In this document: piece by piece, positions 1 through 30,869 of the stretch
How positions within the stretch are numbered: position 1 is the stretch's first letter
How the letters are laid out: each line of letters begins with the position of its first letter
Assembly (NCBI GenBank): GCA_900128585.1
Contig: LT642214.1
Location: 1 to 32,607 of the forward strand
Source of the DNA: Stramenopiles sp. TOSAG23-3
Lineage: Eukaryota
Length of the DNA: 32,607 nt
Direction: 5' to 3'
Program-made: the position numbers and the translations under genes
The notes under the pieces: model-generated
The model's input: the letters and a program-made list of their open reading frames with translations, nothing else
Databases searched by the model: none
What the model was told of the DNA's origin: nothing

Positions 1-3000
1 GTGCTGTGAACGTTTTCAAAGCGATAAAGGTGACAGCCGGTCTTAACATCCCAGACTTCAATACGACCGTGGTCGTCGCACGTCAAGACTTGGTGGTACG
101 TTTTAGAGTACAACACTGATTTCAAAGTCTCTTTTGTTACCCAATCAACCCCTACCTTCGTCTCTCCATTTATTGTCCCGTTGCTATTTACTGAACCTAA
201 TGGTGCCCACTCTTTGATGATGGCATACTTGCGCAGTGATGCACGTAACCCTAGAGTAATTGTTCCTTGCGAATCACAGTGCATTGTAAACACTTCTCCT
301 TTTGCAGCAGTACTGCGACTGTTCGCGCTGCTTCTCGAATAGCTGACATATTCAAACGGGATCTTCTGCAAGAGCTGTGTGTCAACCGTACTGAAAACGT
401 TTAACATTTGAAGCGCTGTTCCGCCGTCCTGCGATCTCGGCACGCTCAATGACAAGATTCTATCATTTTTGTAGTCAAAGTGGACAGAGCGCACTGGAAA
501 GCCAGTGCTGATTGTGCGGAGCACGGTGCATGAACGGGGGGTCCAATGGAGTAAATCACGGCTCATACCGTAACTAATCACAGTCCCGTCCTTTTCGTTT
601 ACAGCAAAGCCGTGGACTGCTTTCTCGTGTTCTGTAAAAGCACGACAGCTGCCATCATACTCTAAAAACTTGCTGTCACCGTACACATCTCCTAGAACTG
701 GTCGGTCGTATGTTATTTTTTGCATTTTTATAGTCCCATCCAGAGATGAAGAAAAAATTGCGCCGTATTGTTCGACGTAGCTTATTTGGGTGACACGATC
801 TCGGTGCATAGCTTTATGGATCCAGCTCCCATTCTCAGAACATACTAAACCTTCTACCTGTTCGATTGGGCCCTTCACTATGTAGTTCTCTGTTTTTAAA
901 TTTTTGGCAACACCCCCCCGAACCTTTTGAAGGACTTTGTAATTTTGTCGCCATTCTTTTGTGAGAACGAAACCGATAATGTCCCCTCTTGCAGTTCCCA
1001 TCCACATCATATCTTTTTTCAACGTAGAAGTGCCACTGGATGTGGTTTTTGAAGGCAGTGCTACGTTGTAAAAATTCATTACGCAGGGAGATCGAGGCAG
1101 CATGGAAATCTTGTATTTCACGTCCCAAGTCTCATTTTCGTGTTTTGACAAACCTAGCCGTTTGCTGCGCTCATCCCACACGGTGCTGCTTATGTAGAAA
1201 TAGATTTCTCGTACTCTAGTTGCAACAGCCAACAACGGACTGCTGCCACATTGGCACATCGCTGTCGCAGTCGACGACAAGGGAACATTGGTCACGTGAC
1301 AGCGTTCTTTCTTTCTTTCAAATCCTGGTTCGTTGCCTTTTAATATGTCGACGACAGAGAATCCTTTGTGTGTTTCAGTGTATGTAGCTAGTCTTTCGAT
1401 TGAAGAGAACGGTCGCCCCGAAACGTTTCGTGCAACATGTAGAATGGCGTCGTCGGGGTGTTTTCTCAAGTTGGAACCCTTTTCAGGGTCACCAATCATG
1501 CGTTTGTCTATTGAATTCAATTGCACATGTGAATACTTGGACGCCACAATGCCAATGTCCTCTTTTTTCTTCTTCTCATCTTCTGTCGTACTATTAGAAG
1601 TGCCTTCTCCTGAGTTTTGTTGGCTCCCTAGGATAAAATTTGCAAAGACTGACCAAGACACCAGGCCTTTTCTATTCTCATCCATCAAGGCAAAAGCTTC
1701 TGAAACAAGGTGTTTCGCCCGATGGTACAAGTCGCCACGGTTTAAACTGTTTAATGCTACCCCTACTGTTGAATGAAAATTGCTCAAAGAAGCCATTGAA
1801 TCATTCATCAATTTCGTCTTGCTCGAGTCGGTCTTGGATAATTTTTGCAGAGCGTTTGCTTTGGTTTGCTGTAACCCGCTTTGATTATCCATTCTAGGTA
1901 ATTTCTTTGGAGTGGACTGCTTCGGTTTGAAACCTAACTTCAGTTTCTCTAGCTCTTTGACGCCGAGTGAGTTTCCCAGTAGAAAAAAGAGCTCTTGCAC
2001 GTTTTCTGGATCGCCAGACTGTAATTTTTGAATTCGTTTCCTGTTTCCATCGACGCTTGCAATTCTTGTGGAAAGCGACCGTCTTTGCTTTGGTATGGGA
2101 AAACCCAAGCTTGCTGAGATCACATTTTGTCTACTGCCTTCTTTCTTTGCAGAATCTGCACCTAACCATTTCGATAAAAGTGAAATGTATTCTCGAGACC
2201 TATCCTCGATGATAGTTAGGTGAGGAAATATGTCGACGAGTTTAAATTTGATGTACAAAACACCTGCGTTTAATTCGACATTGGTTGGGTGGTTAATATT
2301 ATATGAGAGAACTTCGCTTTGAAATTCCTTGTTGTGATCTACTATTGCTTCGAAAAGTTGGTCAACAGGTACTGAAACTGATCCCATTGGATCATCATCT
2401 TCGTCTATCTCATCTTGAGCTCCTGCGTCCTTTTTTGACTCATCTGTTTCTCGGACGTTTTCCTCTAATCCAGCATCTCGGTCAAATAAGTTAATGAGGA
2501 TACGTGTCTTCACTTTTTCTACAGAAAAGACCATTTCATCTGAATCTGAGTCCCACTCCGGGTTAACGGTCTGTTTTATTTCTCGCGATTCAAAACGCTT
2601 TTTTTCATATGAAAGTACTAAGTATGGGTCCGACGTGCCTAGTATACCATCCATCACGAGAACGTCTTCCGCCCTAATAGGGCGAATGGACATGCACCGA
2701 ATATTTTTTGTTCTCTTGTGAGCCTGAGATCGAAGGTTTTGGGACAATGCCTCAATCAGTGAAAACTTTGATCTTGCAAATTCCCACAACCCCTTCGAAG
2801 CCAAGAACGCAGCACTATTGTGACGGGAAAGTAACGCTATCCACTTGCCAAACTCATACGCAATGTCAAGGTTCTTCTTGGTGTTCCGACCCATCAGAGA
2901 AATATACCAATTTACCGGGACTGTACCAAGGTAAACAAACGATAAAGGGTTAAATATTGAACGTTCGTACAACAACAGCAGTTCTTCGTCATCCCTTGGA

Positions 3001-5366
3001 TACGCAGGATACTCTGTAATCTTGAGAACGTTGGAGCGAAAACGCCTACGTGACCACATCTCCCTAAACGCAGAGGCAGGTCGCTTTTGGGAGAACGGCA
3101 AATACCTTGATCTCGCAGCTTTTCGAAACGATGGATGGGAAAACGTAACTCTGATGTGCTCCGTAGCTTTAGATGTTGGGCTTCCTACTGTATTTTGTAA
3201 ATTAAGGTCATCATCAATTTCATCCACAATTCGTAAAAACCCGTGAGACAAGAACAGCAATTTTCTCACGTCTTCCTTTGAAACTTCTAAAAGCCTGCAC
3301 AAAGATCGCAAAGATAGACCTACATCTTCGGGAATAGTAGACAAGATTCCAAAAAAACCGGGCAAAAGGTTTGAAATGTTTTCATCGGTGACCTTACTTT
3401 CGTACCTGCCCAGGACATGTGACGCAACAGCAAATGCGGGATCAATCTGGCTTTGGCTCCCGTTGCACGCCAGCAAAACTTCCTCCAACAGAATTAGGCT
3501 GTCGTCAGGTAGTCGATCTGGCCTATTGTCGGCATGGTCAACATAGATATCGGCGCTAAATAGCCTACATTCGATACCAATCATGAACAGTACCAATGGA
3601 TTTACCGCACAGGCGCTAGCGGAAAATATTTTTTCAACTTCCCGATCTTTTGGTCGCAATTTATCGTCTACGTGCTTAAACCCAGTAAAAAACCATTGTG
3701 CACTTCCTTTGTCCATTCTGTCCGACAAAATCATCTTTTTGAGGCTTTTGTTCTTTTTTATCATGCCAATCACTTTGGAGAGAGAGAAGAAGCTTTTGTT
3801 TGATTCTTTTAAGGCCATTTTGTCACTTGAACCTTTTGTCAAGCTTTTCATATTATCGTTCGTAATGGGTTTCACTATGGCTTGCGGCTTGGAACTTTTC
3901 TTTTCTATGGTCCACTTTAGGTAAATAGAACTAACAGTGGTTATACCGGTGTACTCACCAGGCAGTTCAAGATCGTACCACTTGCTAACCCATTTCCTCG
4001 AATCTCGGCGGTGAAGCGGTGAGGAGTCATTATTGCAGTCCTGGTAAAAAGAATTTAACGGGATAATCACGTTCCCGAGTAACTCACTGTCCCCTAGCAA
4101 ATCTTTGTCATAAATTCGAACGTAAAAATGAGGTTCAATGTCTCTCTGAGTGCTTGGAGAATTGAAGACAAACTCCTCGTTCCAAGCTGGTTCTAAGGAT
4201 TTCTCTATAATTTTGGTATGACGTTTCTCCCCACACCATTCAACTTCGCAATATGGATCGCTCTTTCCAGTCGCATCGGCTGCAATAATCTGTTTTGCCT
4301 CAAAAATTCTAATTTGCAAGTGGGTATCAAGCGGCATAGACTGGAATAATTCCTTGTTGCTCGTGTCGCTGCAAATTCCATGGCCACCACCGGATGCTCT
4401 TTTCGAGCTACTACTCAACAATTTTGAAACAGACGTTGTTTTCTGCTCCCTGTTCGGGCTGTGAAACTCAAGCTGCCAGTCCTGTTTCTGTATGACGGAC
4501 GTCATACTTGTTGAAAGAGATGGAAGAGAAAAAGAGTGGTGCATACCATTCTGAAAATATTTGGAAGAATCAAAGCCTCGCTTTCCCCTTCCGTGCACTT
4601 CATGAAGGTTCTCAGTTTGGTTGTTTAAGTGGCGGTGTTGGCTCCTTTTTTGGCTTCTCGCACGATGAGAACTTCTTTTCTTCTTTGAGCGTCTTCTATT
4701 TTCGAGCGCATATAGCGATTTGCTAAACAAATTGTGCCCTTGCCTAATCGAAGAAGCGGGGGGAGGCAGTGTCGAATTCTGTAACGTGTTTCTTAAACCT
4801 TTCTCTCGCTTTCGCCATTTGTGTGACAGGATGGAATCTACTAATCTCTTGGTTGCTTCTTTGTAATTCAGAAGATTCAAAAACTCTTGGGATGCTGGAA
4901 ACAGCTGAGATAAAGCATCGCTGACTATCTTTGCGGTGAACTCTGGGATTACATCAAGCAATCGTTGAAGTGCTTCTTTGGAAAGTCGCTGCTTTGCCAT
5001 CGATTGTAATTTCCGCCAGAGTTTTCTCGTCTTATTTTCCATTTTAAATTGCTCTTTTTCGTGTTGTGTAGACAACACAGCAAACTGATGGTAAGAAAGC
5101 CAAAAAAATTCAATAAAAATATTCTCGTATGTCTCGTTTCGGATTAGTAGTGGGATAGCATCCCTCGTCAAGGAAGCCCCTATTTTTAAACTGTACTGAA
5201 ACGAGTGAAAAATAATCTTTTTGGAAAAATCATTCGCCTTTAAGTCCATGGCATCTCGCCTTCGAATATGCTGATTCGCAACGACAGCCTCAAACGATTC
5301 TATCGAAGTGGCAGTGGCGGAGTTTCCAATGCCACCATCGAACGAGGCTGATGCTAGCAACGGCAT
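1..5366 (-). CDS. Large C2-domain x2 / EF-hand-like / WD40-repeat protein, 3' end outside the window (>=1788 aa)
   Basis: Manual translation from ATG 5366 (MPLLASASFDGG...) shows no stop down to position 1. C2 domain 1 at ~4320-3910 (HLQIRIFEAKQIIAADATGKSDPYCEVEW...KSLEPAWNEEFVF...VRIYDKDLLGDSELLG). C2 domain 2 at ~2700-2230 (VMDGILGTSDPYLVLSY...KQTVNPEWD...LFDRD...DDDPMG). EF-hand-like segment at ~1700-1630 (FALMDENRKGLVSWSVFANFI). WD40-like repeats below ~820 (HRDRVTQI...SSSLDGTIKM; TCDDHGRIEVWDVKTG). Confidence 0.88.
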   Translation of the reverse strand, partial: MPLLASASFDGGIGNSATATSIESFEAVVANQHIRRRDAMDLKANDFSKKIIFHSFQYSLKIGASLTRDAIPLLIRNETYENIFIEFFWLSYHQFAVLSTQHEKEQFKMENKTRKLWRKLQSMAKQRLSKEALQRLLDVIPEFTAKIVSDALSQLFPASQEFLNLLNYKEATKRLVDSILSHKWRKREKGLRNTLQNSTLPPPASSIRQGHNLFSKSLYALENRRRSKKKRSSHRARSQKRSQHRHLNNQTENLHEVHGRGKRGFDSSKYFQNGMHHSFSLPSLSTSMTSVIQKQDWQLEFHSPNREQKTTSVSKLLSSSSKRASGGGHGICSDTSNKELFQSMPLDTHLQIRIFEAKQIIAADATGKSDPYCEVEWCGEKRHTKIIEKSLEPAWNEEFVFNSPSTQRDIEPHFYVRIYDKDLLGDSELLGNVIIPLNSFYQDCNNDSSPLHRRDSRKWVSKWYDLELPGEYTGITTVSSIYLKWTIEKKSSKPQAIVKPITNDNMKSLTKGSSDKMALKESNKSFFSLSKVIGMIKKNKSLKKMILSDRMDKGSAQWFFTGFKHVDDKLRPKDREVEKIFSASACAVNPLVLFMIGIECRLFSADIYVDHADNRPDRLPDDSLILLEEVLLACNGSQSQIDPAFAVASHVLGRYESKVTDENISNLLPGFFGILSTIPEDVGLSLRSLCRLLEVSKEDVRKLLFLSHGFLRIVDEIDDDLNLQNTVGSPTSKATEHIRVTFSHPSFRKAARSRYLPFSQKRPASAFREMWSRRRFRSNVLKITEYPAYPRDDEELLLLYERSIFNPLSFVYLGTVPVNWYISLMGRNTKKNLDIAYEFGKWIALLSRHNSAAFLASKGLWEFARSKFSLIEALSQNLRSQAHKRTKNIRCMSIRPIRAEDVLVMDGILGTSDPYLVLSYEKKRFESREIKQTVNPEWDSDSDEMVFSVEKVKTRILINLFDRDAGLEENVRETDESKKDAGAQDEIDEDDDPMGSVSVPVDQLFEAIVDHNKEFQSEVLSYNINHPTNVELNAGVLYIKFKLVDIFPHLTIIEDRSREYISLLSKWLGADSAKKEGSRQNVISASLGFPIPKQRRSLSTRIASVDGNRKRIQKLQSGDPENVQELFFLLGNSLGVKELEKLKLGFKPKQSTPKKLPRMDNQSGLQQTKANALQKLSKTDSSKTKLMNDSMASLSNFHSTVGVALNSLNRGDLYHRAKHLVSEAFALMDENRKGLVSWSVFANFILGSQQNSGEGTSNSTTEDEKKKKEDIGIVASKYSHVQLNSIDKRMIGDPEKGSNLRKHPDDAILHVARNVSGRPFSSIERLATYTETHKGFSVVDILKGNEPGFERKKERCHVTNVPLSSTATAMCQCGSSPLLAVATRVREIYFYISSTVWDERSKRLGLSKHENETWDVKYKISMLPRSPCVMNFYNVALPSKTTSSGTSTLKKDMMWMGTARGDIIGFVLTKEWRQNYKVLQKVRGGVAKNLKTENYIVKGPIEQVEGLVCSENGSWIHKAMHRDRVTQISYVEQYGAIFSSSLDGTIKMQKITYDRPVLGDVYGDSKFLEYDGSCRAFTEHEKAVHGFAVNEKDGTVISYGMSRDLLHWTPRSCTVLRTISTGFPVRSVHFDYKNDRILSLSVPRSQDGGTALQMLNVFSTVDTQLLQKIPFEYVSYSRSSANSRSTAAKGEVFTMHCDSQGTITLGLRASLRKYAIIKEWAPLGSVNSNGTINGETKVGVDWVTKETLKSVLYSKTYHQVLTCDDHGRIEVWDVKTGCHLYRFENVHS

Positions 5367-5970
5367 GTTGCACCTCTACCGTTAATCGTTCTGAACTCAC
5401 AGACTTCAACCGTTCAAGCTATTTCTAATCCACTCCGTCGTTTCCAAACAGCTTCTCTCTGTGGCAAAAATATATGCGCCGCGAACAACAAAATTACTCG
5501 TGGTTGGTAGAAATGAACAGAAAAAAAGCTCGTTTTATTACTGTTATATGTGTTGTATCTTTGTGGCATTATTCTTTTTATGCTCTGTTCTTGTAAGTGG
5601 TTTGGATAATATTTCTTCACTCAACAAATAGAAGAGCTTTTTAATTAATTTAATTAATATAGTTTAAATGGCTTAATTGGAATTATTATAATGGCTTTTA
5701 TATATTATTATTTTAACGGAAATCGTGTGTAAAAATTAACTATCAAACATATGCTGTGCTTATATGTGCTGTCCCATAATGTGAAATACAATTTTAAATA
5801 CAAAAAACGAACGAAACAAACAACGAATTTTTGAGGGGGAAAATATGAATAACTCCAAGGTGGAACAAGTACCGGTATTAATATTATCAGGTACAGGCAT
5901 AATACCAGGTACCAGGTACCTGTATAATACCCGTACAGCAATACAGTAGAGGAACTGAGAAAAAAGAAGC

Positions 5971-7614: not shown

Positions 7615-7870
7615 NNNNNNNNNNNNNNNNNNNNNNNNNNNNNNNNNNNNNNNNNNNNNNNNNNNNNNNNNNNNNNNNNNNNNNNNNNNNNNAGAAGAAG
7701 AAGAAGAAAAAAGAAGAAGAAGAAGAAGAAAAAAGAAGAAGAAGAAGAAGAAAAAAGAAGAAGAAGAAGAAGAAGAAGAAAGAAGAAGAAGAAAAAGAAA
7801 AAGAAAAAGAAAAAGAAAAAGAAAAAGAAAAAGAAAAAGAAAAAAGAAGAAGAAGAAGAAGAAAAAAGAA
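7566..7870. repeat. Poly(A), assembly gap (N 7615-7692) and (GAA)n/(GAAAAA)n microsatellite
   Basis: Seen directly. Low-complexity sequence flanks the scaffold gap. Confidence 0.95.
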
Positions 7871-8920: not shown

Positions 8921-9439
8921 TTCTAACACTCTACTCTCAATAAAGAACGAGGAAGGGGGGAAAAAAGTTTACCCAATGAATACTTGTTTATTCACAGGTC
9001 GTACCAGTATTTTTCTTTGTTTCTTAGACTACCAAATAGTATAATATTCTTAATAATTTTTTCCAAATACTACCCATGCTGTTCCTTACCATTCTAATGT
9101 ATTAGCTATACAAATAGGGACTTTATTTGGTGGTATAATATTAAATGTACCGGTACGATAATTACGAGTATTATCTTATGAGTAATACCAAAACTCATCT
9201 TCTATTTTTTTTTATTATAATACTGTAAGTATTATTTTAATAATAAAAAAATACTAGACGACTACTAGACTACCACAAAAAAAAATCTTTTTTTCGAAAA
9301 AATAAATTCGAGTTGGACAGAGGTTTCATAGTCCATCACAATCCGGATTGGCTTGAAAGTAAAACGCAACATTTTCAAATTTGTGCTGAGTGTGCGTGTT
9401 CAAGTAATAGCTTCACAAGGTTCAGCTGATTACAAACTC

Positions 9440-12400
9440 ATGGAAACTTCGGGGAAAACAAACAAGAAGAAAAAGAGGCGAGAGCCGGGATGCTGTTCGC
9501 AAGCAAATTTCTTATGGGTCTACCCGTACTTGATGATCGGGTACACAAAGTCTTTGACGGTAGACAAAATGCCTCCACTTTTTTCCAGGTTTGAATCGAA
9601 AGTCAGAACGGTGGAAGCGATAAATCATTTTGATAAAAACAAAGAAGACGGTGCACTTGCTAGACTAAAATCTACCTTTTGGTACCAAAACCGGTTTACC
9701 TTCAACGCTGGGCTCTGCGTGTCCGTTTGCCAAGGTTTGTTGAATAACCTCGGCCGGCCGTTGGTGTTGAAGCTTGTTATTGACGCGGCTATGCCCAGTA
9801 CTTCCCTGAGTTTCAGTCAAGCTGTATGGGTTGTTCTTCTCTTTGGTGCTGTCATTTTTTTGGAGGGTTTGTCCACCGTCAATGTCAGACAGATTTTGGC
9901 AAACGAGGTTGCTTCCAACATCTTGTCCTGGTTGATACCGCTCATTCATCAAAAGTCTATGCGGATTTCTTCTTCTAGTGGGCCGGCACTGAAGGGCGAC
10001 AAAAATGCATCCTCCACTAACGAAAGTGCAATTATAGGGAACGATCTTATTCGTGGGTTTTCGGAAGTGAAGTGGATGTGTAATTTGCCGCAAAATGTTG
10101 TTGGTTTCGTGGCCGGGATCACGGCCCTGGCGCTTCTGCTAGGTTGGAACTGTTTGGTTGGCATCCTAGTCATGGCGATAGTGCTGCTCATTAACTGGCA
10201 AGTCGCAAAATGCTCAGAAAAAATTACCAAACAAGAACTAACTGCGACAGATGCACGAATTGTTTCATTAAAGGAAGTGATTGGTGGCATTGAACAGGTG
10301 AAGTTTGGTGCATGGGAAGAACCTTATCTGAACCTCCTTGAAAAGAAGCGGCTTCTGGAGACCCATTATATTTTAAAGGCAAGACGGTATCAAATAGTGA
10401 ACATGGCCTTGGGCAGGTGCTGTCCTATTCTTGCCGGGTGTGCAACCTTCGTGTACATGGGTTTGACGCAAGGCGATAGCTTGACAGCCTCGCAGGTATT
10501 TGCCTCTTTAGCAGCATATAACAGTCTGCGCATGCCTTTAATAACGTTACCGATGAATTTGATTCAAATGTTTACGCTGAGAGTAACAGCACAGCGCTTG
10601 GCGAGTTACCTCGACAGTCCGGAGCAGCATCGAACTAACGCCGCAAACAGCGGCAGTAACGCAATTGTTCAGATTAAAGACGCCACTATAGGTTGGGGAA
10701 AGTGCGATGGGCGCGATTCAACGCATCGCAAGGATGGCGTCGCTGAATCTGCGCCCGAAGACCCCGGCTTAGAATCCTTCGAACGCTTTGTTTTGTTAAA
10801 TGTCAGCTTAAATATTGAAAGGCGAGGTACGGGAAATTTAGTCGCCATTGTTGGACAAGTCGGCTCGGGGAAATCCACTCTTATCAACGCAATGATTGGC
10901 ACCAATGCGTTAGACGCTGGTACGGTGGAAACTGTAGAATCCGTAGGCTACGTTCCTCAGAAACCGTTCGTACTCTCTGGAACTATCCTAAATAATATTC
11001 TTATGGGAAGAAAGTACGATGAAGCAAAAATCAAGGAAGCCATCTCTGCATCCGCTTTCCTGACAGATTTGAAGCTGATGGATTCTGGTGTGAACACGGA
11101 AGTGGGGGAACGTGGGACAACACTTTCTGGCGGGCAGCAGCAACGACTGGCGATTGCGCGGGCAGCGTACGGGGATCCAGAACTCCTGATCGTAGACGAT
11201 GCACTTGCGAGTGTTGATGGACACGTTGCAAATTCGATTTTTAAAAGCATTTGTATACAGAGAAAAAGTAAAGGGTTGACGACGGTCGTAGCCATTAACC
11301 AGTTACACTTTGTCCATAAATTTGACCATGTCATTTTTTTGAAAGGTGGTAAAATCGCTTCTCAGGGGACATACCAGAAAGTTTTTGAAGAAAACGAGGA
11401 CTTTCGTGGGTTGATTGCGTCGGGGGAAGAGGCAGAAGGTCAAGATATTGACCAGCTGGACGAAGGTGCGCCCCACGAAGCTCAACAAGCACCACATGAA
11501 TTGGGCAGCAACGAAGCCTTGACGACGGAAGCTTCCGCAGCAAAGCTCGTAAAGGAAGAGAAAATCAAGAAAGGTCTAGTTTCGGGCAGAGAAGTACTTA
11601 TGCCGTACTATAAAGGATTGGGGGGGCACTTTTATCCTGTTGGAGCACTCGTCTTTGCTGTCGCTGCCTATGCCCTGATGGCAGGGAGTGATCTGTGGCT
11701 TGCAAGCTGGATAACAGACATGAAAGATATTTCTACAGATGAAAACAGCAGCCGCGCTCTTGGCTACGCCGGATTGGCATTTCTTCAATTTCTCGGCGTC
11801 CTGTTTTTAAGTTTGTACAATGCTGTGAGTACAACAAAGGCCGCTAGGTTAATTCACAAGCTCACGATAACGCACCTCATGCATGCGCCTATGCGATGGT
11901 TTGAACGTACACCTAGTGGACGTATTTTATCCCGCTTTAGCGGAGATTTATCGCTAGTTGATCACGTATTTGCGTTCATAGTGGATGATATTTGGCATTT
12001 TTTCTTCATCATTGTGGCCTTCCTTGTCGTAATTGGACTAATTGTACCCCAAATTGTTCCGGTTCTGTTCTTCGCCACAATATTTTACTCCTTCGAAGTG
12101 GTCTCTGTAGACCGCTCGAATCGAGAAGTAAAACGGGCAAGCAACAATTCCTTGGGGCCAATCATGACATTGGTTCAAGAGACTGTTAATGGGCGGGCGC
12201 TGATACATGCAATGAAATTCCACAGTTTCTTCTCAGAGCAAATGTATTCCCATGTGAATGAATGGAGCAGATTTAACTACTTTGGTGCAACCATTATGAA
12301 TGCTGGAACCCACTTTGTGAACCCACTTTGTGAACATCCTTGCCTTTTTTATATCTGTTTCTGCAGCATCAGTTGTCCTTTTTAATCGAGACGACTTTCA

Positions 12401-14441
12401 AAACCCAGCCATGGTTGGCGTAGCGCTTGGCTATTCGTTTCTCTTGCCATACTTTCTCGGGCTCTTTGCCTTGATGATTCAAATGTTGCTGACAGCCGCA
12501 ACTTCATTGGAACGCATACTACAATATCAAAGCGACGAGGTACCACAAGCCCCGGCGTGGCACTTGAAACGGGATAAAGAGTTAGAACGAAAAGACTGGC
12601 CATCGGATGGAAATATTACGTACGAACACATGTCGTTGAAGTATAGACCGGAGCTGGAGCCCGCTGTAAAAGATGCCACGCTTACTATCCGTGCCCAAGA
12701 GAAAGTAGGTGTGATTGGCAGAACAGGCGCCGGAAAGTCCACACTCATGGTTGCACTCTTTCGCCTCTGTGATCCTTGCTCTGGGAAGATTTATGTAGAC
12801 GATGAGGACATCTCTAATATCGGTCTCCAGCATCTCCGCCAAAATATAGCAATCATTCCTCAGCGTTCTCTTATTTTGGAAGGATCCGTACGGCACAACT
12901 TAGACCCGTTTGACAAACATGAAGTGCAGAAGCTCTCCCAAGTCCTGGTTGACGTTGCCCTCTGCAAAGATGTTAAGGCTGCAGAAACCCTACTCCGTGT
13001 TGAAATTGGGCCAAATGCTAATTCAGGGCTGTCCGCAGGAGAGCAACAGCTTCTGTCAATAGCACGAGCATTGCTGCAACATCATGTGCGTGTGGTTATA
13101 ATGGATGAGCCCACTGCAAATATCGACATGCGCACTGATGAAATGGTCCAGCGCGTCATTCGAAAAGCTTTCAGCAAGTCCACGGTTATTACGATTGCGC
13201 ATAGATTGAACACAATTATAGACTTTGACAAAATTGTTGTAATGGACAAAGGTAGTGTGGTCGAGATTGGTGCTCCAGTAGATTTGCTGGACAACCCAGA
13301 CAGTTTCTTGTGCAACATGGTCACGGCCATGGGCAAAAAAGCGGCGGTGGCATTGAGGAAAAAGGCAAAAGATGCTGCTTTCCATCGCCAGGAGGAAAGA
13401 CCAGATCATAAAAATGACACGAGCGGCGGCAGCGGTGTAGAGTTTGTTGCTGATACTCAAGTTGAGGTTGTCGTTGTGAGGGAGGAGGAGTATGAAGTCA
13501 AAGTGACTGATGGTGATGACCTCAGCGCATACGAACGACGGTGCTGGCTAGACTTTGTGTCTAAATGTTTTGAAGCAAAAGGTACGCCAAGAACATTTTT
13601 CGAAGCTCAATTGAAACAGTTGCCAAAGCATACAATAATGTCGCTGGTCGATTCTACCGGCCACTGCCTGTCCACTCTATGCATATTTGAGGTTGAATTT
13701 CGAGAGTACCGAACAGCAGGAATAGGATCGGTTTGTACAAGTGAACGCCATCGAGGGAAAGGGTATGGATCGCATTTGCTGCAATACTCGAAGAGGTTTA
13801 TCGAAGAGTCCAATAGGTTCGATATCTGTCTGCTGCACTCTTCAAAGCCAAACCTGCAGCTTTTTTACGAAAAGTTAGGGTGGGCGAGGAAACTATGCGT
13901 GTCCTACGGGATGTGGAGGGTGGGAGCATCTGGTCCAGGGACACCTGGATCTAGCGTTAGAAAAGCGCTAGTGGGAGATCGACCTGCGATTGAATTATTG
14001 TACAATGATCAAGCAAGTAGAGCGTCAGATAGACTAATACAAAAACGTAGAAACAGAAGTGATTGGAATCATTGGTTCTTACATTTTCAGGAAGGCAGTC
14101 AAACAGAACTGCAAAATGTCTATGTTTTCGTTAGTGAAAATGTTGTTAAAGCTTACTGTGTCATCCAAAAATATAAAGAAAATTACCAAGTTGCTGAGTA
14201 CGCCAGCACCACGCAGAACCAAATAAAAACAATCGTTTCCTGCATTGTGCCTTCGAAAGGTGGTGCGAGTGCCGTTGTTCAGGTTCCTTATAAGATTTCC
14301 TGTGATTTGCATGAATGGGTTGACATAGAGGAGAGGCAGCAATTTGAAGATAGTGGTTGGAGGTACTTCTTGGTTGGAAAGGACGGTGCCGATCCCGACC
14401 TGGAAGATCAATTTTTTTGTTGGAGAACGGATAACTTTTGA
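9440..14441 (+). CDS. ABCC/MRP-type full ABC exporter (TMD1-NBD1-TMD2-NBD2) with a C-terminal Eis-like GNAT acetyltransferase; frameshifted at ~12306-12331
   Basis: NBD1: GQVGSGKST, LSGGQQQR, LIVDDALASVD. TMD2: FERTPSGRILSRFSGD. NBD2: GRTGAGKST, LSAGEQQL, IMDEPTANID, TIAHRLNTI. GNAT motif A: GIGSVCTSERHRGKGYG. Removing one copy of the 13-bp duplication joins ORFs 9353..12385 and 12330..14441 into 1662 aa from ATG 9440. Confidence 0.9.
12306..12331 (+). repeat. 13-bp perfect tandem duplication causing the ABCC frameshift
   Basis: GAACCCACTTTGT x2 (12306-12318, 12319-12331). A single copy gives the in-frame peptide NAGTHFVNILAFF. Confidence 0.95.
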
Positions 14442-14654
14442 ATAAATATCCCAGCAGGACGAGACTCCAACTGGCACGCCAACGACCCTCAACCATTGCA
14501 TTGCCAACCGAATCTTCACCATCGGAACAGCACCCACAAATGCCGATTACGCACACCGACTTAAACGACCCTCCCCCGACACCTCAACTCACAAATGACA
14601 ATTCCCTGACTGGTGTACAAGACAGACAATGAACACTATTAAAATATTCACGTC

Positions 14655-15035
14655 GCTGCTTAGAAATCACACAATGACTGATTCATTTACGAGTGAGACG
14701 TCGGATGATGAAGTTGACTATGGGTCTTTTGACATCGACGCAATTCCACACACCGATTCGGATCAATGCATGGAGTACACGTGAGAATGATAATCAAGAC
14801 TAGGTGACAAGACAAGAAAATTGGCTGTTATTTTTAAGTAATTAAAATTTAGCTTCCTCATATACCGCGAAAATGAATCTACTCAGCATTTGTCCATTAG
14901 AAGTCCTTTACATTCCTTCATGTACTGCGAAATGATCTCTATTGTGATTTTAGTAATCAATAATACCCTTGTCACTCACCTAGTCTTAACTATCATTTTT
15001 CCATGTGTGCTAATTACTTAAAAATTAAAAACAAG
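14655..15035. mobile_element. Remnants of an unclassified repeat family (family A): a + copy at 14655-14811 and a tail-to-tail - copy at 14811-15008
   Basis: 14655-14811 aligns by eye with the reverse complement of ~27360-27516. 14941-15008 aligns directly with 27321-27390 and is an inverted match to 14777-14811. 14812-14880 matches 27601-27660. Confidence 0.7.
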
Positions 15036-15266
15036 TTAGGTTTAGTGGCATTTAGGGTTGGAACAGAAATCGTAATTGATATAAAGAGAGCGTCTTAATA
15101 AATATAAATTTTTTTTTTCTTAAAAATAATAAATATTAAATAACAACAGCCAACTTTTTGTTTTTATTATTGAAGAAGATAAATTTTAATCACTTTAAAT
15201 TACTGCCAATTTTTTTTTTAAGAAAGACTTTTTACGAACTTAGTAATTCCAATCTATGTCGTAAAC

Positions 15267-23332: not shown

Positions 23333-24413
23333 TTATTTTTTCTGTGTTTTTTTTGTTGGTAGTCCTTTTCTTTTTGATCTTTTTCTTCTTCTTGGTGGGG
23401 ATGAATCATAATAATAAGCAGTGGTTGCGCTGCTATCTTCCTGTTCTTGTTCCGTCCATCCTGAATCGACTTCGGAATAATCGGCTTCACCACTTTCTTC
23501 CCCTAAGAAGAGAGCAGCATCAGCATCGGATACAATTGCTTTGTTAGCCTTCACAGCATTAGCAATTAATTTTTCGTTTAGTAGTTTCTCGCTGCTGTGA
23601 CCGTATTGATGCAAACTTTTTGTGGAAATCGTCGAGGAGGTTGTAGCGGATCCTTCATGCTCCATTCGTTTGCCACTCTTGGTTCGGTTCTGCAGTTTCT
23701 TTTCAGCGTTCTTCGGTTTCTTTCCTTTGATTTTCTTCTTCAACTTTGATTTCGCTTCAATTCGTGCTGCGACAGCCCATATATCTTCGTCATAGGGCCG
23801 GAGCAGAGTGTTGATAAATCGCTTCCAGCCGTGCAGGGAAGTTTCACCTTGGCGTTTGCAGAGTTTGGCAATGTTTTGCAGGCACACGCAAGCTTTTTTA
23901 GCTTTTTTAGCTTTGTTCTTCGAGCGACCGTACGATATTGCCACGGGAATCACCAGGAAGCTTCCCATAACGAAAACGAGGACCCAATTTGAAAGAGTGT
24001 CTGACATGATAGGCTGTGACCCAAACACCTTTCCCCCGCCGTGCGCTCCCCAGGCTTCTTCGAACGAGGAAAATCCGCCAAAATCGTCCCATTCCTCTCC
24101 ATTGATATCGTCCGGGCCCATGTCTCCCATGGCGTTTGGTCCACCCATGTCATACCGCCGTCTCTTCTTGACGTCGGATAATATTTCGTAGGCGTTCGCC
24201 AGTTCAACGAACTTTTCCTCCATTTCTTTTTTTTTGCTTCCCTTGTGCTTATCTGGATGAAACTCTCGCGCCAATTTGCGAAAACTTTTCTTTATGTTTT
24301 CCTGGGTCGCCCGTGGAGTTAAGTCCAATATTTGGTATAGGTTTCGCTTTGGCTTCACCTTTGGTCTAGGCGGCTCTGGCATACCTTCCTGTCTCCCGTT
24401 TCCATACTTTTTT
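23333..24413 (-). CDS. DnaJ (Hsp40 J-domain) membrane protein, 5' end at the assembly gap
   Basis: J domain RNLYQILDL...IKKSFRKLAREFHPDK...FVELANAYEILSDVKKRRRYD with HPD, a G/F-rich linker, and TM WVLVFVMGSFLVIPVAISY. The frame is open up to the NNNN at 24414. Confidence 0.85.
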
Positions 24414-24417
24414 NNNN
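24414..24417. other. Assembly gap (NNNN) hiding the 5' ends of two divergent genes
   Basis: The DnaJ frame runs into the gap from the left, and the ABCC on the right begins at the very end of TMD1. Confidence 0.85.
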
Positions 24418-24419
24418 AC

Positions 24420-27302
24420 TTTTTTGTTGCATCAAGGCGAATAACGAAGTTTTTGCACCAGACGGAAGTGAAAGGGTTGAATATTCTTCCCCTGCTGACC
24501 ACCGACGGTAAAAGCACCGCAAAGGTCTCTGTTGAAGGCAACGCGTCCTATTCGTACACCAGAAAGGTAGCGGACACAGGAGAGAACGAGGACAAGGACG
24601 CCAAAAACGATATCGAAAGCAAGCAGTTTAAGTTGAAAAATATCAACATGTCCTTGAGTTCCGGCCAGCTGTGCATGGTATGTGGAAAAGTTGGATCTGG
24701 AAAGAGCTCCCTGGTATCTGCAATACTGGGAGAGATGCATTCTCAGACCGATAGCGTAATAGAAATGCATGGCTCTGTGGCGTACGTACCGCAATCGCCA
24801 TGGATCCTGAACAAATCCGTGCGCCAAAACGTAGTGTTGCAGGCGGACCAAGCTGCCTCGGTCAACGAGGCGAGGTATCAGGATTCGCTGGTCGCAACGG
24901 AGCTGATCAATGATCTTCATATTCTGCCAGCTGGGGATCAGACTGAAATAGGCGAAAAAGGCATAAACATTTCTGGTGGTCAGAAGCAACGGGTAGCACT
25001 TGCTCGAGCAGTCTACGCGGACCGAGACATATACATCCTGGACGACCCGTTGTCTGCATTGGACGTCCACGTGGGGCAGAATGTGTTCGACCATCTTATA
25101 AAAGACAGATTGCGCGAAAAACTTGTGATTCTTGTTACTCACAACCTGCTGCTATTGCCAGACGCGGACCACATCCTTTACTTGGAAAACGGTGATCTGG
25201 TGGGAAGCGGAAAATACGACGACTTGCTTGAAAACAGCCAGTCCTTTCGCACATTGATATCGTCAATGGAGGACAAACATGTTGGGGAAAACGTGGAAGC
25301 CGTTAAAGACGCAGACCGCTCCCCTCTTTCCCCCAGCACCATCAAGGTGAAAGAAACCGAGACATCGTCTGTCTCCAGAAAAACAGGGAAGGGGCATAGC
25401 CCCTCCCTCGCTTCCAAAATTCCGTTGCACGAAACGACAGAGGAAGAGAGAAAAGCTGGCGCAAAGATGATAAGAGCAGAACAGCGCTCGAAAGGTTCTT
25501 TGAAGCTGAGCACTGTAGCGGCGTACTTTGGTAGCTTTTATCGAGGAATTTCTGCCTCGTTTGCGGTCGTAATTATTGTATTCTTGATGAGCTTAGCGGA
25601 AAGTTGCAACATGCTTACCAGTTGGTGGTTGAGCCATTGGTCGACGTCTGTGGAGCTCGCAATTAGTGGGTACCAAGACCACGCTTTTTATATTGGCATA
25701 TATGGCTGTTTTGTTCTAGGTGCTTTGATTCTATACTTCATATCTCAGATTGTTACGAGCGAGGGGGCTGTCGCGGCTGCAACGCGGTTGCACGACAGGA
25801 TGCTGCATGCTCTGCTCGCTGCGCCCATGAGGTTTTTTGAGACTACCCCAACGGGCCGCACACTCTCCCGCTGCTCGAAGGATGTCGACGAAGCGGATAC
25901 GTTGCTGCGAGTAGCATTCTCAAGCATGTTTACTTGCTTCATAGAATCATCGGCAACACTTGTGTTGGTCACTGTGCTCACGAATGGCTGGTTGGCAGTT
26001 GTTTTGCTACCGATTGGGTTTCTTTACTTTTATATTTTGAATTATTACAGGAAAACAAGCAGGGAGTTAAAGCGGTTGGACAGTGTCAGCAAGAGCCCTG
26101 TCTTTTCGCATTTTGCAGAGACTTTGAATGGATTGACATCGGTTCGTGCATTTCAAATGGAGGAACCCTTTGGAAAGAAAAATTTAGACATTATTGATGT
26201 CAACCATCGCGCATACTTTTTGTCTAATGTGGCCAACAGATGGTTGTCTATAAGGCTTGAACTTATCGGGGGCACTTTAACGCTGCTGACAGGCGTTATT
26301 TTAGTTTTTATCAGTTCTCCGACTACCGCTGCTTTAGCGGGACTGGCTTTGGTCTATATTACCAAAATGCTCAACACCTTAAACTGGGGCGTTCGTCAAG
26401 TCAGTGAGACAGAAGTCCGTTTCAACGCAGTGGAGCGATTGTTGGAGTACCAGGGCGACGATTTCCCAACAGAAGCACCTTCGGAAATGCTGAGCGATTC
26501 AGCGTTGGTTGGTGGGACAAAAGGATCTGCTGAAGGAAAGAGCTGGCCACTACATGGAGAGATAAAACTGATCAACTATTCCATGCGATACCGTGAAAAG
26601 CTCCCGTTGGTGCTCCGGAATTTGAACGCGACTGTTCCTGCTGGATCACGCGTGGGAATCTGTGGTAGAACTGGGAGTGGAAAGTCTAGTCTGTTTTCGG
26701 CAATTTTTCGACTTGTTGAGCCTGCAGAAGGCTCGATTGAGATTGATGGTCAAGACATAACAAGCCTAGGTTTAAAGACTTTGCGGTCAAAAATTGCTAT
26801 TATCCCGCAGGACCCTGTTCTGTTTGTTGGGAATGTGCGCGACAACTTGGACCCTTTTGGAACTTACTCAGATGCAGAAATCTGGGAGGTTCTTCGTTTG
26901 TGCAACATGTTTGACGTGCTGCAGCGCCGGGGCGTTGGTGAGTCAAGCACAGAAGTGAAGTTGATGGCACCGGTCAGTGAGGGCGGAAGCAACTTTTCTC
27001 AAGGGGAAAGGCAGTTGATGTGCATTGCTCGGGCCCTGCTCCGGAAACCCAAAGTGCTTCTCTTGGACGAGGCAACTGCTTCAATTGATATGGACACAGA
27101 CAATATTGTTCAAGAAATGATTCGGAAGATATTTTGCGACTGTACCACCTTGACAATTGCTCACAGAATCAACACTATTGCTGATTCCGATTTAATCATG
27201 GTTTTGGATAATGGCACCATTCAGGAGTTTGACACTCCTGCAAAGCTCTTGGAGGCACAAGGATTGTATTATGAGATGCTGCACAGTTCAGGGGAGAAGT
27301 GA
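24420..27302 (+). CDS. Second ABCC/MRP-type transporter, 5'-partial (NBD1-TMD2-NBD2; TMD1 lost in the gap)
   Basis: GKVGSGKSS, ISGGQKQR, ILDDPLSALD; FFETTPTGRTLSR, RWLSIRLE; GRTGSGKSS, FSQGERQL, LLDEATASID, TIAHRINTI. Ends shortly after NBD2 with no extra domain. Confidence 0.92.
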   Translation, partial: FFVASRRITKFLHQTEVKGLNILPLLTTDGKSTAKVSVEGNASYSYTRKVADTGENEDKDAKNDIESKQFKLKNINMSLSSGQLCMVCGKVGSGKSSLVSAILGEMHSQTDSVIEMHGSVAYVPQSPWILNKSVRQNVVLQADQAASVNEARYQDSLVATELINDLHILPAGDQTEIGEKGINISGGQKQRVALARAVYADRDIYILDDPLSALDVHVGQNVFDHLIKDRLREKLVILVTHNLLLLPDADHILYLENGDLVGSGKYDDLLENSQSFRTLISSMEDKHVGENVEAVKDADRSPLSPSTIKVKETETSSVSRKTGKGHSPSLASKIPLHETTEEERKAGAKMIRAEQRSKGSLKLSTVAAYFGSFYRGISASFAVVIIVFLMSLAESCNMLTSWWLSHWSTSVELAISGYQDHAFYIGIYGCFVLGALILYFISQIVTSEGAVAAATRLHDRMLHALLAAPMRFFETTPTGRTLSRCSKDVDEADTLLRVAFSSMFTCFIESSATLVLVTVLTNGWLAVVLLPIGFLYFYILNYYRKTSRELKRLDSVSKSPVFSHFAETLNGLTSVRAFQMEEPFGKKNLDIIDVNHRAYFLSNVANRWLSIRLELIGGTLTLLTGVILVFISSPTTAALAGLALVYITKMLNTLNWGVRQVSETEVRFNAVERLLEYQGDDFPTEAPSEMLSDSALVGGTKGSAEGKSWPLHGEIKLINYSMRYREKLPLVLRNLNATVPAGSRVGICGRTGSGKSSLFSAIFRLVEPAEGSIEIDGQDITSLGLKTLRSKIAIIPQDPVLFVGNVRDNLDPFGTYSDAEIWEVLRLCNMFDVLQRRGVGESSTEVKLMAPVSEGGSNFSQGERQLMCIARALLRKPKVLLLDEATASIDMDTDNIVQEMIRKIFCDCTTLTIAHRINTIADSDLIMVLDNGTIQEFDTPAKLLEAQGLYYEMLHSSGEK

Positions 27303-27944: not shown

Positions 27945-30869
27945 TTAGCTAATTTTCGGCCGAAAGAATCGCCCATCTTTGCTAAGCTCAAGATTGCTGC
28001 TGCTTAGTGAACCTTCGCCAATACTTAATTTTTCGACGCCTTCTTCAAGTTTTCCCAATTGTCCAGCATTGGTATTGCTGGTGCCAGATATTTTTCCTGC
28101 CAAGTATGCAGGAAGTTCATCTAACGCTACCTCTTTGCTTTCTCTCGCTTTCATGTCTTTCACCTGGCAAACGCCTTTCTGGATTTCGTTTTCTCCCAAA
28201 ATAACCATCCACGGGATGTCTTTTTCCAGGGCCATGGTCAATTGGCGTTTGAAAGCAATGTCTACCTTGTAAACGAACTTCGCTGATAATCCAACCCGCC
28301 ACAAAGACGAGCAGAGCTTCATTCGCTCTTTAATAAACGAGCCACCCGTACTAGCGACTAGAACGTCTACAGGCTTCGCTCCAAAGTTGTTGTTCAATTT
28401 CGCTTTCCTTTCCATTATAGCAAAAACCCGTTCAATGCCAATACTGACACCAACGCACGGGGTGCTCTTGCCAGAAAACATGCCAACAAGGTTGTCGTAG
28501 CGTCCACCGGCCGCTATGGAACCGACGCGTTCGCCCTTTTCTGTGATGACAGCTTCGTAAATCAAGCCAGTGTAGTAATCAAGTCCTCGCGCCAAGCTTA
28601 GGTCAAACGAAATGTTGTCCAACACACCCATGACTTCCATGTATTCAAACAGTAGCTTCAAATCCCCCATAGCCTTTGCAGCGCGCGGGTGGGTGGCAAA
28701 CTCGGTCCACTCCGTTTCCATTAGTTTCTTGTGCAGCGCCAGCGGGGAAGCGTGGGTCCGAACGTCGCTGTCCTCTTTCACATAACGACCGATTCGATCA
28801 GCAACAACCGGGTCTAGCCCTTTCACTTCGATCATTTCGCACCGAACTGCTGACCATGGTTCTTTGTCCAACTTGTCGATGGCAGAGCAGATGGGGCGAA
28901 ATTTCTGCTCTGGAACGCCACAAATATCGAGCATTGCGTCCAGGAGAACACGGTGATTTAACTTGATTGCAAAATCGCCAATAGGCAACGCGCGCAAAAT
29001 TTCAATCGCTACAGACAAAACCTCCGTTTCTGGGATCATCGGGTCGTACTCCCCGGCAACATCGTAGTCGCACTGGTAAAATTCTCGAAAGCGGCCTTTG
29101 GCCGCATTGGGAGTATCGCGACGGTAGACTTTTCCAATGTGAAAGCGTTTGATGTTTCCTACCGAGTGTGACGCCAAGAACCTGGCAAATGGGACGGTCA
29201 AATCGTACCTTAGCGCAAGCAATTCTCCTCCTTGGTCGGCAAGTTCGTATATCAGCTTGGAATCTTCGCCGTACTTTCCAGTCAACGTCTCTTTCAGCTC
29301 AAACACGGGTGTATCGATCTCTACCGCACCATGATTACGAAAAACTCCACGAATGACCTCAAACGCTTCTTGGCGAACTGCCATTTGCTGAGGCTCAAAA
29401 TCTCGCGCCCCCTTCACGACCTTGGGCACGCGCATGACTCCTCCACTTCCGATCCGGTCCAACAATTCACGCAGAAGCCCCGCGGTGCTCAGGCCATCTT
29501 TGCTGGGGTCGATGTACTGACCGACGTCCGACCCGCCCGCCAGCAGTTTCATGAACCATGATGTCCCGGCACCCAACGATAGGCCAGACGAGTTTTTCTT
29601 TCCTCCCCCTTTCTTGGCGGCCTTGGCGGCTTTCTTGGCGGCCTTGGCGGCCCTTTTGGCAGCAGCCTTCTCGTTCTCGACAGGGTTGCCACCTTTCGCA
29701 GCGTTGGCAGCCTCCATTTTTTTCTTGTATTCTTCTGCTTTCAAGCGAGCTTTCTCTTCCTTTGCCTTGTTGATCGCTTCCTTCTCGGCCCGTCGAGTTT
29801 CCAAGATAGTCGTGCTCTTTCGCAGCTCGGCAGTCAAAGTGCTTATTAACTTTGAGGCGCTCGCGTCGCCTGCAGACGGTGCCTGAGGGATGGCCTCGGC
29901 GGAAGCCAATAGACCTAGGCGGTCTTGCGACGCCTTGAAAAGCTTTGCAACGTACAAGCTAAGGGACTGGAGGGCAACCTCGACTGCGGTGCCGTCGAAC
30001 GAAGCGCGCATTCCGAGCGCAGGCGCACCGTTCAGTTCTGTCTTAAAGGAACGAGCGATGCTAGGTAAGCTCCACCGGGCGGGACCATGCTGCTGAGGGG
30101 TTAGCTCTGCCGCGTTCAACGATCGTTTCTTTGGGGCCTTCTTTCCCTCTGCCTTTAAATTCTTTGAATCTTTCAGAAAGATGCGAAGGTTTGACGCGGA
30201 CTCCACCACGCCCCTATGCGGACGGCACACGTAGTCTGCCTCGTTAAAGGCTGAAACAGGGGTTTGCAACGCCTCGCACGAGAGAGCAGCAACAGCATCC
30301 GCAATGTCCATCACAGATATCACCGTGTGTATCTCCAAGGCGGCCACCGCGGCCATAGCGATCACATCGCGTGAGAAAGCAAAGAGCTCAATGGGGGTTA
30401 GCTCTCCGATCGGGGCCAGCTTGCTGTCAGAGCTTCCCGAGTACGTCTCGCCTTCTCCAGTTTCCAAAAACTTTACGAGCGCCGGCGTGTACACCATTTC
30501 CGCCGCGTTCTTGGTCCGTGGCAATTGGGGGATTACGTCGCTGTTGAGCATCTCTGCCAGCATGTTCGCAACTTCTGGGCGCACGTCCGAGCGGCAGGCC
30601 ATAAACCATACCAAGTGGAAGCAGACGGTTGCGCGCGCCTCCGCTTTTGTATAGAACAAAGAGGAGGGCGCCGCTTCTGCTTTAACGTCAAAGTGTGGCT
30701 CTGGGGCTTTTTGCTTCTTGGCCATGCCCGCAGATTTTTTCATTTGCTCGATAACAGGAGTATCAAGTTGAACGTTCGCGCGATAGTGCGAAACTTTAAA
30801 CAGCTCTTCCAGGGTTACATTTCTATTCCCCACAAGGACGCTTTCCTTTGACGTGGCTGTCGTGGACAT
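27945..30869 (-). CDS. HARS1: Cytosolic histidyl-tRNA synthetase with an N-terminal histidine/phenylalanine ammonia-lyase-like domain
   Basis: HisRS core KGARDF, EIDTPVFELKETLTGKYGEDSKLIYEL, LRYDLTVPFAR, YRRD, GRFREFYQCDYD, LARGLDYYTG, AAGGRYDNLVG, plus the anticodon domain. The N-terminal ~350 aa are HAL-like (RPHRGVVESASNLR, PQQHGPA, ELNG). Confidence 0.96.
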   Translation of the reverse strand: MSTTATSKESVLVGNRNVTLEELFKVSHYRANVQLDTPVIEQMKKSAGMAKKQKAPEPHFDVKAEAAPSSLFYTKAEARATVCFHLVWFMACRSDVRPEVANMLAEMLNSDVIPQLPRTKNAAEMVYTPALVKFLETGEGETYSGSSDSKLAPIGELTPIELFAFSRDVIAMAAVAALEIHTVISVMDIADAVAALSCEALQTPVSAFNEADYVCRPHRGVVESASNLRIFLKDSKNLKAEGKKAPKKRSLNAAELTPQQHGPARWSLPSIARSFKTELNGAPALGMRASFDGTAVEVALQSLSLYVAKLFKASQDRLGLLASAEAIPQAPSAGDASASKLISTLTAELRKSTTILETRRAEKEAINKAKEEKARLKAEEYKKKMEAANAAKGGNPVENEKAAAKRAAKAAKKAAKAAKKGGGKKNSSGLSLGAGTSWFMKLLAGGSDVGQYIDPSKDGLSTAGLLRELLDRIGSGGVMRVPKVVKGARDFEPQQMAVRQEAFEVIRGVFRNHGAVEIDTPVFELKETLTGKYGEDSKLIYELADQGGELLALRYDLTVPFARFLASHSVGNIKRFHIGKVYRRDTPNAAKGRFREFYQCDYDVAGEYDPMIPETEVLSVAIEILRALPIGDFAIKLNHRVLLDAMLDICGVPEQKFRPICSAIDKLDKEPWSAVRCEMIEVKGLDPVVADRIGRYVKEDSDVRTHASPLALHKKLMETEWTEFATHPRAAKAMGDLKLLFEYMEVMGVLDNISFDLSLARGLDYYTGLIYEAVITEKGERVGSIAAGGRYDNLVGMFSGKSTPCVGVSIGIERVFAIMERKAKLNNNFGAKPVDVLVASTGGSFIKERMKLCSSLWRVGLSAKFVYKVDIAFKRQLTMALEKDIPWMVILGENEIQKGVCQVKDMKARESKEVALDELPAYLAGKISGTSNTNAGQLGKLEEGVEKLSIGEGSLSSSNLELSKDGRFFRPKIS

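Follow-up and report, generated by a model that had tools for sequence, protein, structure and literature searches.

An ABCC-type transporter joined in frame to a predicted Eis-like GNAT acyltransferase in a marine protist

Few ABC exporters carry an enzyme of their own that modifies the cargo. Bacteriocin exporters offer an example: they carry an N-terminal C39 peptidase, a cytosolic enzyme that, as part of the same polypeptide, modifies the cargo before its ATP-driven export. Here we describe a gene on a stretch of 32,607 nucleotides from Stramenopiles sp. TOSAG23-3 (contig LT642214.1; the whole stretch is called the window below), in which an ABCC transporter continues without a stop into a predicted Eis-like GNAT acyltransferase. 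Our data lead us to conclude that this is a real, expressed and lineage-specific gene fusion in a marine protist, encoding one polypeptide of about 1660 residues. Its architecture is that of an ABC exporter with an accessory enzyme, in a pairing of ABCC and acyltransferase that we did not find described and that is confined to one marine protist lineage in the data examined. The C39 exporters differ from it in that the enzyme is an N-terminal protease and the pump a bacterial half-transporter, with peptide cargo and without acyl transfer. A genetic coupling of efflux and acetylation is found in Bacillus subtilis, in which the efflux pump gene blt is co-transcribed with bltD, the gene of a spermidine acetyltransferase (PMC11808394), so that a pump stands next to a GNAT acetylating a polyamine the pump handles. 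These, however, are two proteins of an operon, the pump being of the MFS type and the enzyme a small single-domain GNAT unrelated to the Eis clade.

The enzyme half resembles Eis of Mycobacterium and its homologues 3n7z, 2hv2 and Eis2, in which an N-terminal Acetyltransf_9 GNAT is likewise followed by a second GNAT lobe. The likeness extends to the R-x-x-G-x-G motif, to a conserved Tyr in FY..G[WY] and to a Phe as the last residue, which is paired with F402 of Eis in the model alignment. Eis has about 400 residues, versus 270-460 in the stand-alone family to which the window's module belongs, and forms a free hexamer (PMC4964394), whereas the window's module is eukaryotic, tethered to a membrane pump, devoid of the SCP2-like domain (about 110 residues in Eis) and about 70-90 residues shorter. 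Eukaryotic entries account for 5 of 5152 Eis-domain proteins in InterPro v48 (PMC5799202). N-myristoyltransferases (NMTs) have a two-lobed GNAT fold of similar size (VIA Z 19.9, model residues 4-334 against chain residues 143-496) and place their C-terminal carboxylate in the active site (PMC4964394), but the window's tail is not a member of that family at the sequence level. The transporter half, in turn, is like the short exporters of the ABCC4/MRP4 type in its four-domain order without TMD0, its degenerate first nucleotide-binding domain (NBD1) and its consensus NBD2. ABCC4 itself ends about 23 residues past the aligned part, whereas the window's protein continues with about 325 residues of enzyme.

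A junction shared by DNA and RNA assemblies

The gene lies on the plus strand of the window in two overlapping open reading frames (ORFs), 9353..12385, with the first transmembrane domain (TMD1), NBD1 and most of TMD2, and 12330..14441, with the end of TMD2, NBD2 and the long tail (Table 1). We refer to their translations as P0002 and P0001, respectively, and to the database protein of the same gene as P0003. Counted from the first in-frame ATG at 9440, and with one copy of a 13-bp duplication omitted, the gene has 1662 codons. The original prediction, made from the letters of the window alone, held that the frame continues after NBD2 into a GNAT region, and so it does: in the translation of the second ORF it is free of stops through KDAAFHRQEERPDHKNDTSGGSGVEF and into the tail, which ends in FFCWRTDNF before the TGA at 14439-14441. 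All the motifs that the prediction had quoted are present.

Table 1. Features of the fused gene, with positions in the window
Feature	Positions	Strand	Motifs and remarks	Basis
Whole gene: short ABCC transporter (no TMD0), linker and tandem-GNAT tail	9440..14441	+		ORFs, first in-frame ATG, ABCC4 alignment, L002 frame
NBD1	10799..11206	+	Walker A GQVGSGKST, signature LSGGQQQR, Walker B LLIVDD (D-D, degenerate ABCC type)	Pfam ABC_tran, P0002 residues 483-618, E 6.7e-20; motifs read from translation
TMD2 (ABC_membrane)	11645..12301	+	Duplication cuts TMD2 just downstream	Pfam ABC_membrane, P0002 residues 765-983
13-bp tandem duplication	12306..12331	+	GAACCCACTTTGT twice; frame shifted in the window's copy only	Sequence
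NBD2	12669..13304	+	Walker A GRTGAGKST, signature LSAGEQQL, Walker B VVIMDE (catalytic Glu), H-loop IAHR	Pfam ABC_tran, P0001 residues 114-263, E 1.8e-24; motifs read from translation
Hydrophilic linker, ~35 residues	13362..13463	+	KKAKDAAFHRQEERPDHKNDTSGGSGVEFVADTQ; without in-frame ATG	Translation
GNAT lobe 1, presumed catalytic	13464..13925	+	WLDFV..CF..KGTPR; motif A GIGSVCTSERHRGKGYG (about 13719-13769); Tyr145 (13866-13868) in FYEKLGW	Pfam Acetyltransf_9 residues 36-151, E 3.7e-9; model residues 11-164
GNAT lobe 2 (central-GNAT-like)	13950..14372	+		Model residues 173-313; VIA alignment to Eis/Eis2 spans whole model
C-terminal tail	14373..14441	+	W-R-T-D-N-F and TGA; terminal Phe conserved as very last residue	

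The junction itself is found across assemblies and RNA-library contigs. Two metagenome loci share it, one of them identical to the window over the tail (L001, 100%) and the other nearly so (L002, 99%), the latter as a single open frame of 1525 codons, open at its 5' end, that runs from TMD1 through the GNAT. When contigs from four public runs were aligned to positions 9200-15000, two from DNA crossed the junction (run X2, 12241-14458; run X6, 11458-14060), as did two from RNA libraries of two studies, one of 3487 nt (X4, 11031-14536) and one, without any differences, from a polyA-selected library (X18, 13286-13795); the RNA runs give no cover at 9200-10169 (X4) and 9200-12691 (X18). Two overlapping X2 contigs are open, the first, over 9200-12270, being free of gaps and the second, over 12241-14458, differing from the window only by the 13 letters of the duplication. 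An intron at the junction was considered and rejected, as no splice-like joint was reported between 9200 and 14450.

Start codons and variants also bear on the join. The last in-frame ATGs upstream are at 13317 and 13329, the latter in the C-terminal helix of the ABC part, and the next one, at 13638, is past the conserved N-terminal GNAT motif; since none lies between 13329 and 13638, a separate and complete GNAT would have to be translated from a start within the sequence that codes for the ABC part. Only two variants were seen inside the GNAT, a synonymous change at 14351 and an in-frame deletion of 6 nt at 14330. The deletion, which takes away GGAGAG (14330-14335, two residues of GNAT lobe 2), occurs in L002, the X4 RNA contig and an X6 DNA contig and is a frame-keeping population variant. 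The linker varies by a D>G change at 13405 in L001. Thirteen studies of marine metagenomes and metatranscriptomes contain sequence of this organism.

Upstream of the junction, the window's own copy has a frame break that the original prediction did not see. Its two frames are separated solely by the 13-bp tandem duplication; with one copy removed the sequence becomes GTHFVNILAFFISV, the same as in P0003, which reads through as GTHFVNILAFF. The duplication is missing from each of the five other sequences with cover at this site (X4 RNA, X6 DNA, X2 DNA, L001 and L002) and is private to the window or an artefact. P0003 has a private defect of its own, the loss of 1 nt near window position 13806, and ends inside the GNAT; this loss is absent from X4, X6, X2, L001 and L002. 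In L001 the private defect is one additional G within the G7 run at window position 11620 (L001:940). We read the private frameshifts as errors of assembly or amplification because each sits in one record only. A gene predicted from such a frameshifted record would lack the fusion in part or altogether.

Some of these data count against an intact and expressed gene. Three of the four long assembled versions (the window, P0003 and L001) each bear a different private frameshift, a pattern that could reflect relaxed constraint. The RNA evidence consists of metatranscriptome contigs without strand or ends, for which DNA carry-over or overlapping transcripts are possible. More generally, contigs show presence and not single molecules, and some of the data sets are possibly not independent of the source of the window.

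The transporter half and the GNAT tail

The transporter is of the ABCC/MRP type, as had been proposed. Pfam matches to ABC_membrane (twice) and ABC_tran (twice) in P0002 and P0001 give the domain order TMD1-NBD1-TMD2-NBD2, and P0003 and L002 carry the transporter domains read through as one frame. In a PDB sequence search ABCC4 was a global match (query 34-1338 against chain 15-1302 of 1325, E 5e-146), and the top 60 sequences shown were all ABCC (ABCC2/4/1/3/5, YCF1, SUR and CFTR). Since the ABCC4 alignment begins at chain residue 15, this is a short ABCC without TMD0. A hallmark of ABCC proteins is the asymmetry of their ATP sites, the Walker B motif lacking the catalytic Glu in NBD1 and having it in NBD2. 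The window's protein shows the same asymmetry, with LLIVDDALASVD in NBD1 (Glu missing) and VVIMDEPTANID in NBD2 (Glu kept). On these sequence features, the transporter half is a predicted ATP-driven exporter, short and ABCC4-like.

The window also holds an ABCC paralog (24261-27302, plus strand), to whose NBD2 that of the fused gene is 41% identical, up to ...VDLLD. The paralog stops 15 residues past its NBD2 alignment, in agreement with the claim that it ends soon after this domain. Its ORF begins at NBD1, without TMD1, and is 5'-truncated at a 4-N scaffold gap (24414-24417) into which a minus-strand DnaJ ORF also runs; a scaffold join probably interrupts the paralog there.

The tail of the fused protein was analysed as window positions 13434-14438, that is 335 residues, the module after the linker making up 325 of them. 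The original prediction expected Acetyltransf_9 or Eis-like matches, and these were obtained: the tail exceeds the curated Pfam cut-offs for Acetyltransf_9 (37.1 bits, cut-off 25), Acetyltransf_1 (36.7, cut-off 20.7) and Acetyltransf_7 (34, cut-off 27), so the frame is not open by mere chance. When 1.84 billion representatives were scanned in full with HMMER, at least 97 relatives (clusters at 50% identity, without taxonomy labels) were detected at E <=1e-3, 12 of them at E <=1e-10, all of 74-462 residues. The best full-length one, P0005 (346 residues, 39% identity), aligns over its residues 24-346 with residues 36-335 of the tail; since it covers the tail end to end, the tail corresponds to a complete stand-alone protein. 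Tail and stand-alone relatives have in common the motifs WLDFV..CF..KGTPR..YF, GIGxVCT, LLHSS, FY..GW and a C-terminal W..D.F, and G98, V100, T102, G110, L134, H135, Y145, G149, D333 and F335 are invariant in the 11 aligned sequences. The pyrophosphate loop for coenzyme A (CoA), R-x-x-G-x-G, reads ERHRGKGYG in the tail and includes the invariant G110. Judged by sequence, the CoA-binding and catalytic motifs of the GNAT appear intact.

As a single sequence, the tail gave weak matches only in the PDB (GCN5, E 0.0053; 3n7z, E 0.026) and sub-threshold matches only in NCBIfam (ArsN1a, E 0.0017; RimI, E 0.013). A profile built from 44 sequences, the tail plus 43 relatives, which we also used for an AlphaFold model, placed the Eis family first in the PDB: 3n7z at 1.4e-38 and 2hv2 at 2.7e-24, followed by 2i00, 2ozg and 4my0, with Eis2 at about 2e-16 and M. 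tuberculosis Eis at about 1e-14. Acetyltransf_9 (PF13527) is matched by 44/44 members of this set, the window's tail included, and Acetyltransf_17 (PF17668, the central domain of Eis) by 3/44, among which the window's tail is not found. The model (pLDDT 88.9, pTM 0.86) has two GNAT lobes and an end of some 22 residues; tail residues 1-7 are below pLDDT 50 and the fold begins at residue 11. Foldseek returned Eis homologues as its top matches, with TM about 0.6, and VIA alignments gave Z values of 19.5-21.1, the highest for Eis2 (Z 21.1 over 291 residues, with a root mean square deviation of 3.8), with Eis 3r1k at 19.9. The second GNAT-like module that had been read from the letters thus stands as a lobe of the model (residues 173-313), whereas by sequence no Pfam family matches this lobe in the window's protein. 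Taken with the profile matches, the model supports the proposed tandem arrangement and predicts that the tail is a complete two-lobed Eis-like GNAT acyltransferase. An SCP2-like domain found no Pfam match in the tail at E up to 1, and only about 22 residues follow lobe 2; the module is therefore Eis-like in its core and tail, and not a full Eis. As to a bacterial origin of the GNAT, the only clusters that came up were large prokaryotic ones of 271-332-residue Acetyltransf_9 proteins, which are by themselves no sign of gene transfer.

We rejected the identification of the tail as an NMT, since no NMT Pfam match was found in it at E up to 1. The NMT profile PF01233 gave a weak match in 2/44 relatives (best E 0.0036), and the similarity of fold to N-myristoyltransferases is high nonetheless (VIA Z about 19-20).

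The terminal W-x-x-D-x-F proved to be real and a hallmark of the family. Among the relatives of at least 270 residues, 49/66 end exactly in D-x-F, and 47 of these 49 begin with a Met of their own; eight more end in D-x-Y, D-x-I or D-x-V. In the VIA alignment, the last residue of the model, 335, is also the last one aligned and lies opposite residue 402 of Eis. The invariant Tyr145 falls on the FY of 3n7z in the alignment and is the presumed equivalent of Y126 in Eis. In Eis, Y126 is the general acid and F402 the remote base, and in NMT the base is the C-terminal carboxylate (PMC4964394). The position of the enzyme at the C-terminal end of the fusion may thus exist because the family apparently needs, as Eis and N-myristoyltransferase do, a free terminal carboxylate in the active site, which here would be that of the invariant last Phe.

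The original prediction knew of no described protein with this architecture, and our protein searches returned no other fused form. A search with the tail among longer proteins gave P0003 only (1/1130 candidates), and so did a search with the family profile (1/7998 candidates); the 97 relatives are all too short to include a transporter. All the relatives found stand alone, and the fusion is therefore lineage-specific. Four short fragments at 44-49% identity (P0014, P0019, P0025 and P0027) come without gene context, and six metagenome loci (L003-L008) are distant GNAT matches, 30-36% identical over at most 112 residues. The stand-alone two-lobed Acetyltransf_9 proteins, of about 270-460 residues and with P0005 as the nearest, are the same module from end to end, D-x-F end included, but they are separate genes with their own Met, none of them joined to a transporter and none with a name or an assigned function in the sources examined. 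A literature search found no paper on an ABC-GNAT fusion or on this architecture, and the examined passages of PMC7415369 contain nothing on such a fusion.

What the fused protein may do

The NBDs of an ABCC pump face the cytosol, and the GNAT would therefore sit at the pump's cytosolic entrance, held there by the flexible tether of ~35 residues that leaves NBD2. From this position, at which acetyl-CoA would be at hand, the enzyme could use it, or a different short acyl-CoA, to N-acylate a cytosolic amine. Polyamines, arylalkylamines, amino-acid conjugates and amine xenobiotics would be candidate substrates, and N-acylation would neutralise the positive charge of the amine. The product would be released beside the inward-facing cavity of the transporter, taken up there and expelled with ATP, so that it leaves the cell through the plasma membrane or enters a vacuole. 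By analogy with blt and bltD, and given that Eis enzymes acetylate arylalkylamines (PMC5799202), we hold the chances to be about even that the GNAT acylates an amine that the adjacent pump then exports. A broader proposal would treat the fusion as a 'Rosetta stone'. If a single polypeptide performs both N-acylation and ABCC export, channelling its product from the GNAT pocket into the inward-facing cavity, the whole eukaryotic family of short, SCP2-less Eis-like proteins with a D-x-F end might act upstream of ABCC pumps, in the detoxification of amines or the secretion of metabolites; this we offer tentatively, as a possibility that we would rather bet against.

Several considerations speak against modification followed by export. 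The coupling of acetylation to export is entirely something that we infer. The relatives, 97/97 unfused and of 74-462 residues, tell us that the enzyme works alone elsewhere, and the fusion could therefore be neutral. Eis is a hexamer, an assembly that is not simply open to a domain attached to a monomeric pump. Finally, ABCC pumps favour organic anions, and an N-acetylated amine is neutral and not an anion, unless the substrate also has an acid group.

Rather than handling cargo, the GNAT could be a regulatory module that acetylates lysines of the pump or of a partner, or that senses acetyl-CoA, and so ties the activity or trafficking of the pump to metabolism. The intact motifs of the domain would serve this role as well, the Lys-rich flexible linker KKAAVALRKKAK would let it reach lysines of the NBD or of the linker itself, and Eis can acetylate not only small amines but also peptides and proteins (PMC4964394, PMC5799202). 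However, the stand-alone relatives have no pump to regulate, auto-acetylation found no support in this analysis, and the deep two-lobe pocket with its terminal carboxylate resembles enzymes that acylate small molecules or N-termini; we consider regulation unlikely. Similarly unlikely, in our view, is a fusion without coupling, a recent read-through join of neighbouring genes that have unrelated jobs and draw no kinetic or regulatory benefit from each other. The restriction of the fused form to the near-identical sequences of this organism fits such an event, as do the stand-alone state of all other relatives and the composition of the two parts, which is similar, as for old neighbours in one genome (GC 0.466 versus 0.442, and GC at third codon positions 0.482 versus 0.422). 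Yet the linker has no start codon left for the GNAT, the frame stays open across variants that include the in-frame 6-nt indel, and the C-terminal placement exactly preserves the free terminal Phe of the family. The weakest alternative, in which the junction stems from a chimeric assembly or a decaying gene makes no full-length protein, can point to the broken frames of the window, P0003 and L001 and to a scaffold with N gaps, but is very improbable given an identical junction in the window, L001, L002, X2, X6 and the RNA-library contigs, frameshifts that are each private to one record, and open frames over the covered parts of L002, the X2 contigs and the X4 RNA contig.

Should modification and export turn out to be joined in this protein, it would be a case of natural conjugation and efflux in one molecule and a compact model for the hand-over of substrate from an enzyme to a transporter. 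The stand-alone Eis-like family, with its 97 or more clusters, would then gain a first hint of its function. A secreted acetylated amine, if there is any, could have ecological relevance because of the occurrence of the organism's sequence in so many marine studies. If the two halves do not cooperate, the gene is one more lineage-specific fusion.

Other features of the window

The window has the look of an intron-poor eukaryotic scaffold, with two N gaps and long ORFs for C2, DcpS, CRAL/TRIO, DnaJ and HisRS proteins; Rfam gave no match anywhere in it. One of the gaps, of 78 N (7615-7692), lies in an A-rich stretch of low GC. At the left edge, a minus-strand open frame of 1791 codons (3-5375) runs off the window, with two C2-domain matches and no other Pfam match at E up to 1e-5. 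Just 3' of the stop codon of the fusion, positions 14451-15220 form a high-copy repeat, over which the summed contig depth of the DNA runs climbs from about 7-280 into the thousands or tens of thousands. The repeat has many loose ends and joints and contains imperfect inverted repeats (for example 14777-14807 and 14976-15006), and it looks like a miniature inverted-repeat transposable element. Further downstream, a minus-strand ORF of 984 codons (27945-30899) encodes an aromatic amino acid lyase domain (Lyase_aromatic, residues 84-334, E 5.6e-25) together with a histidyl-tRNA synthetase that is complete, having both tRNA-synt_His and an anticodon-binding domain. Both halves of this ORF would act on histidine, provided that the lyase is a histidine ammonia-lyase.

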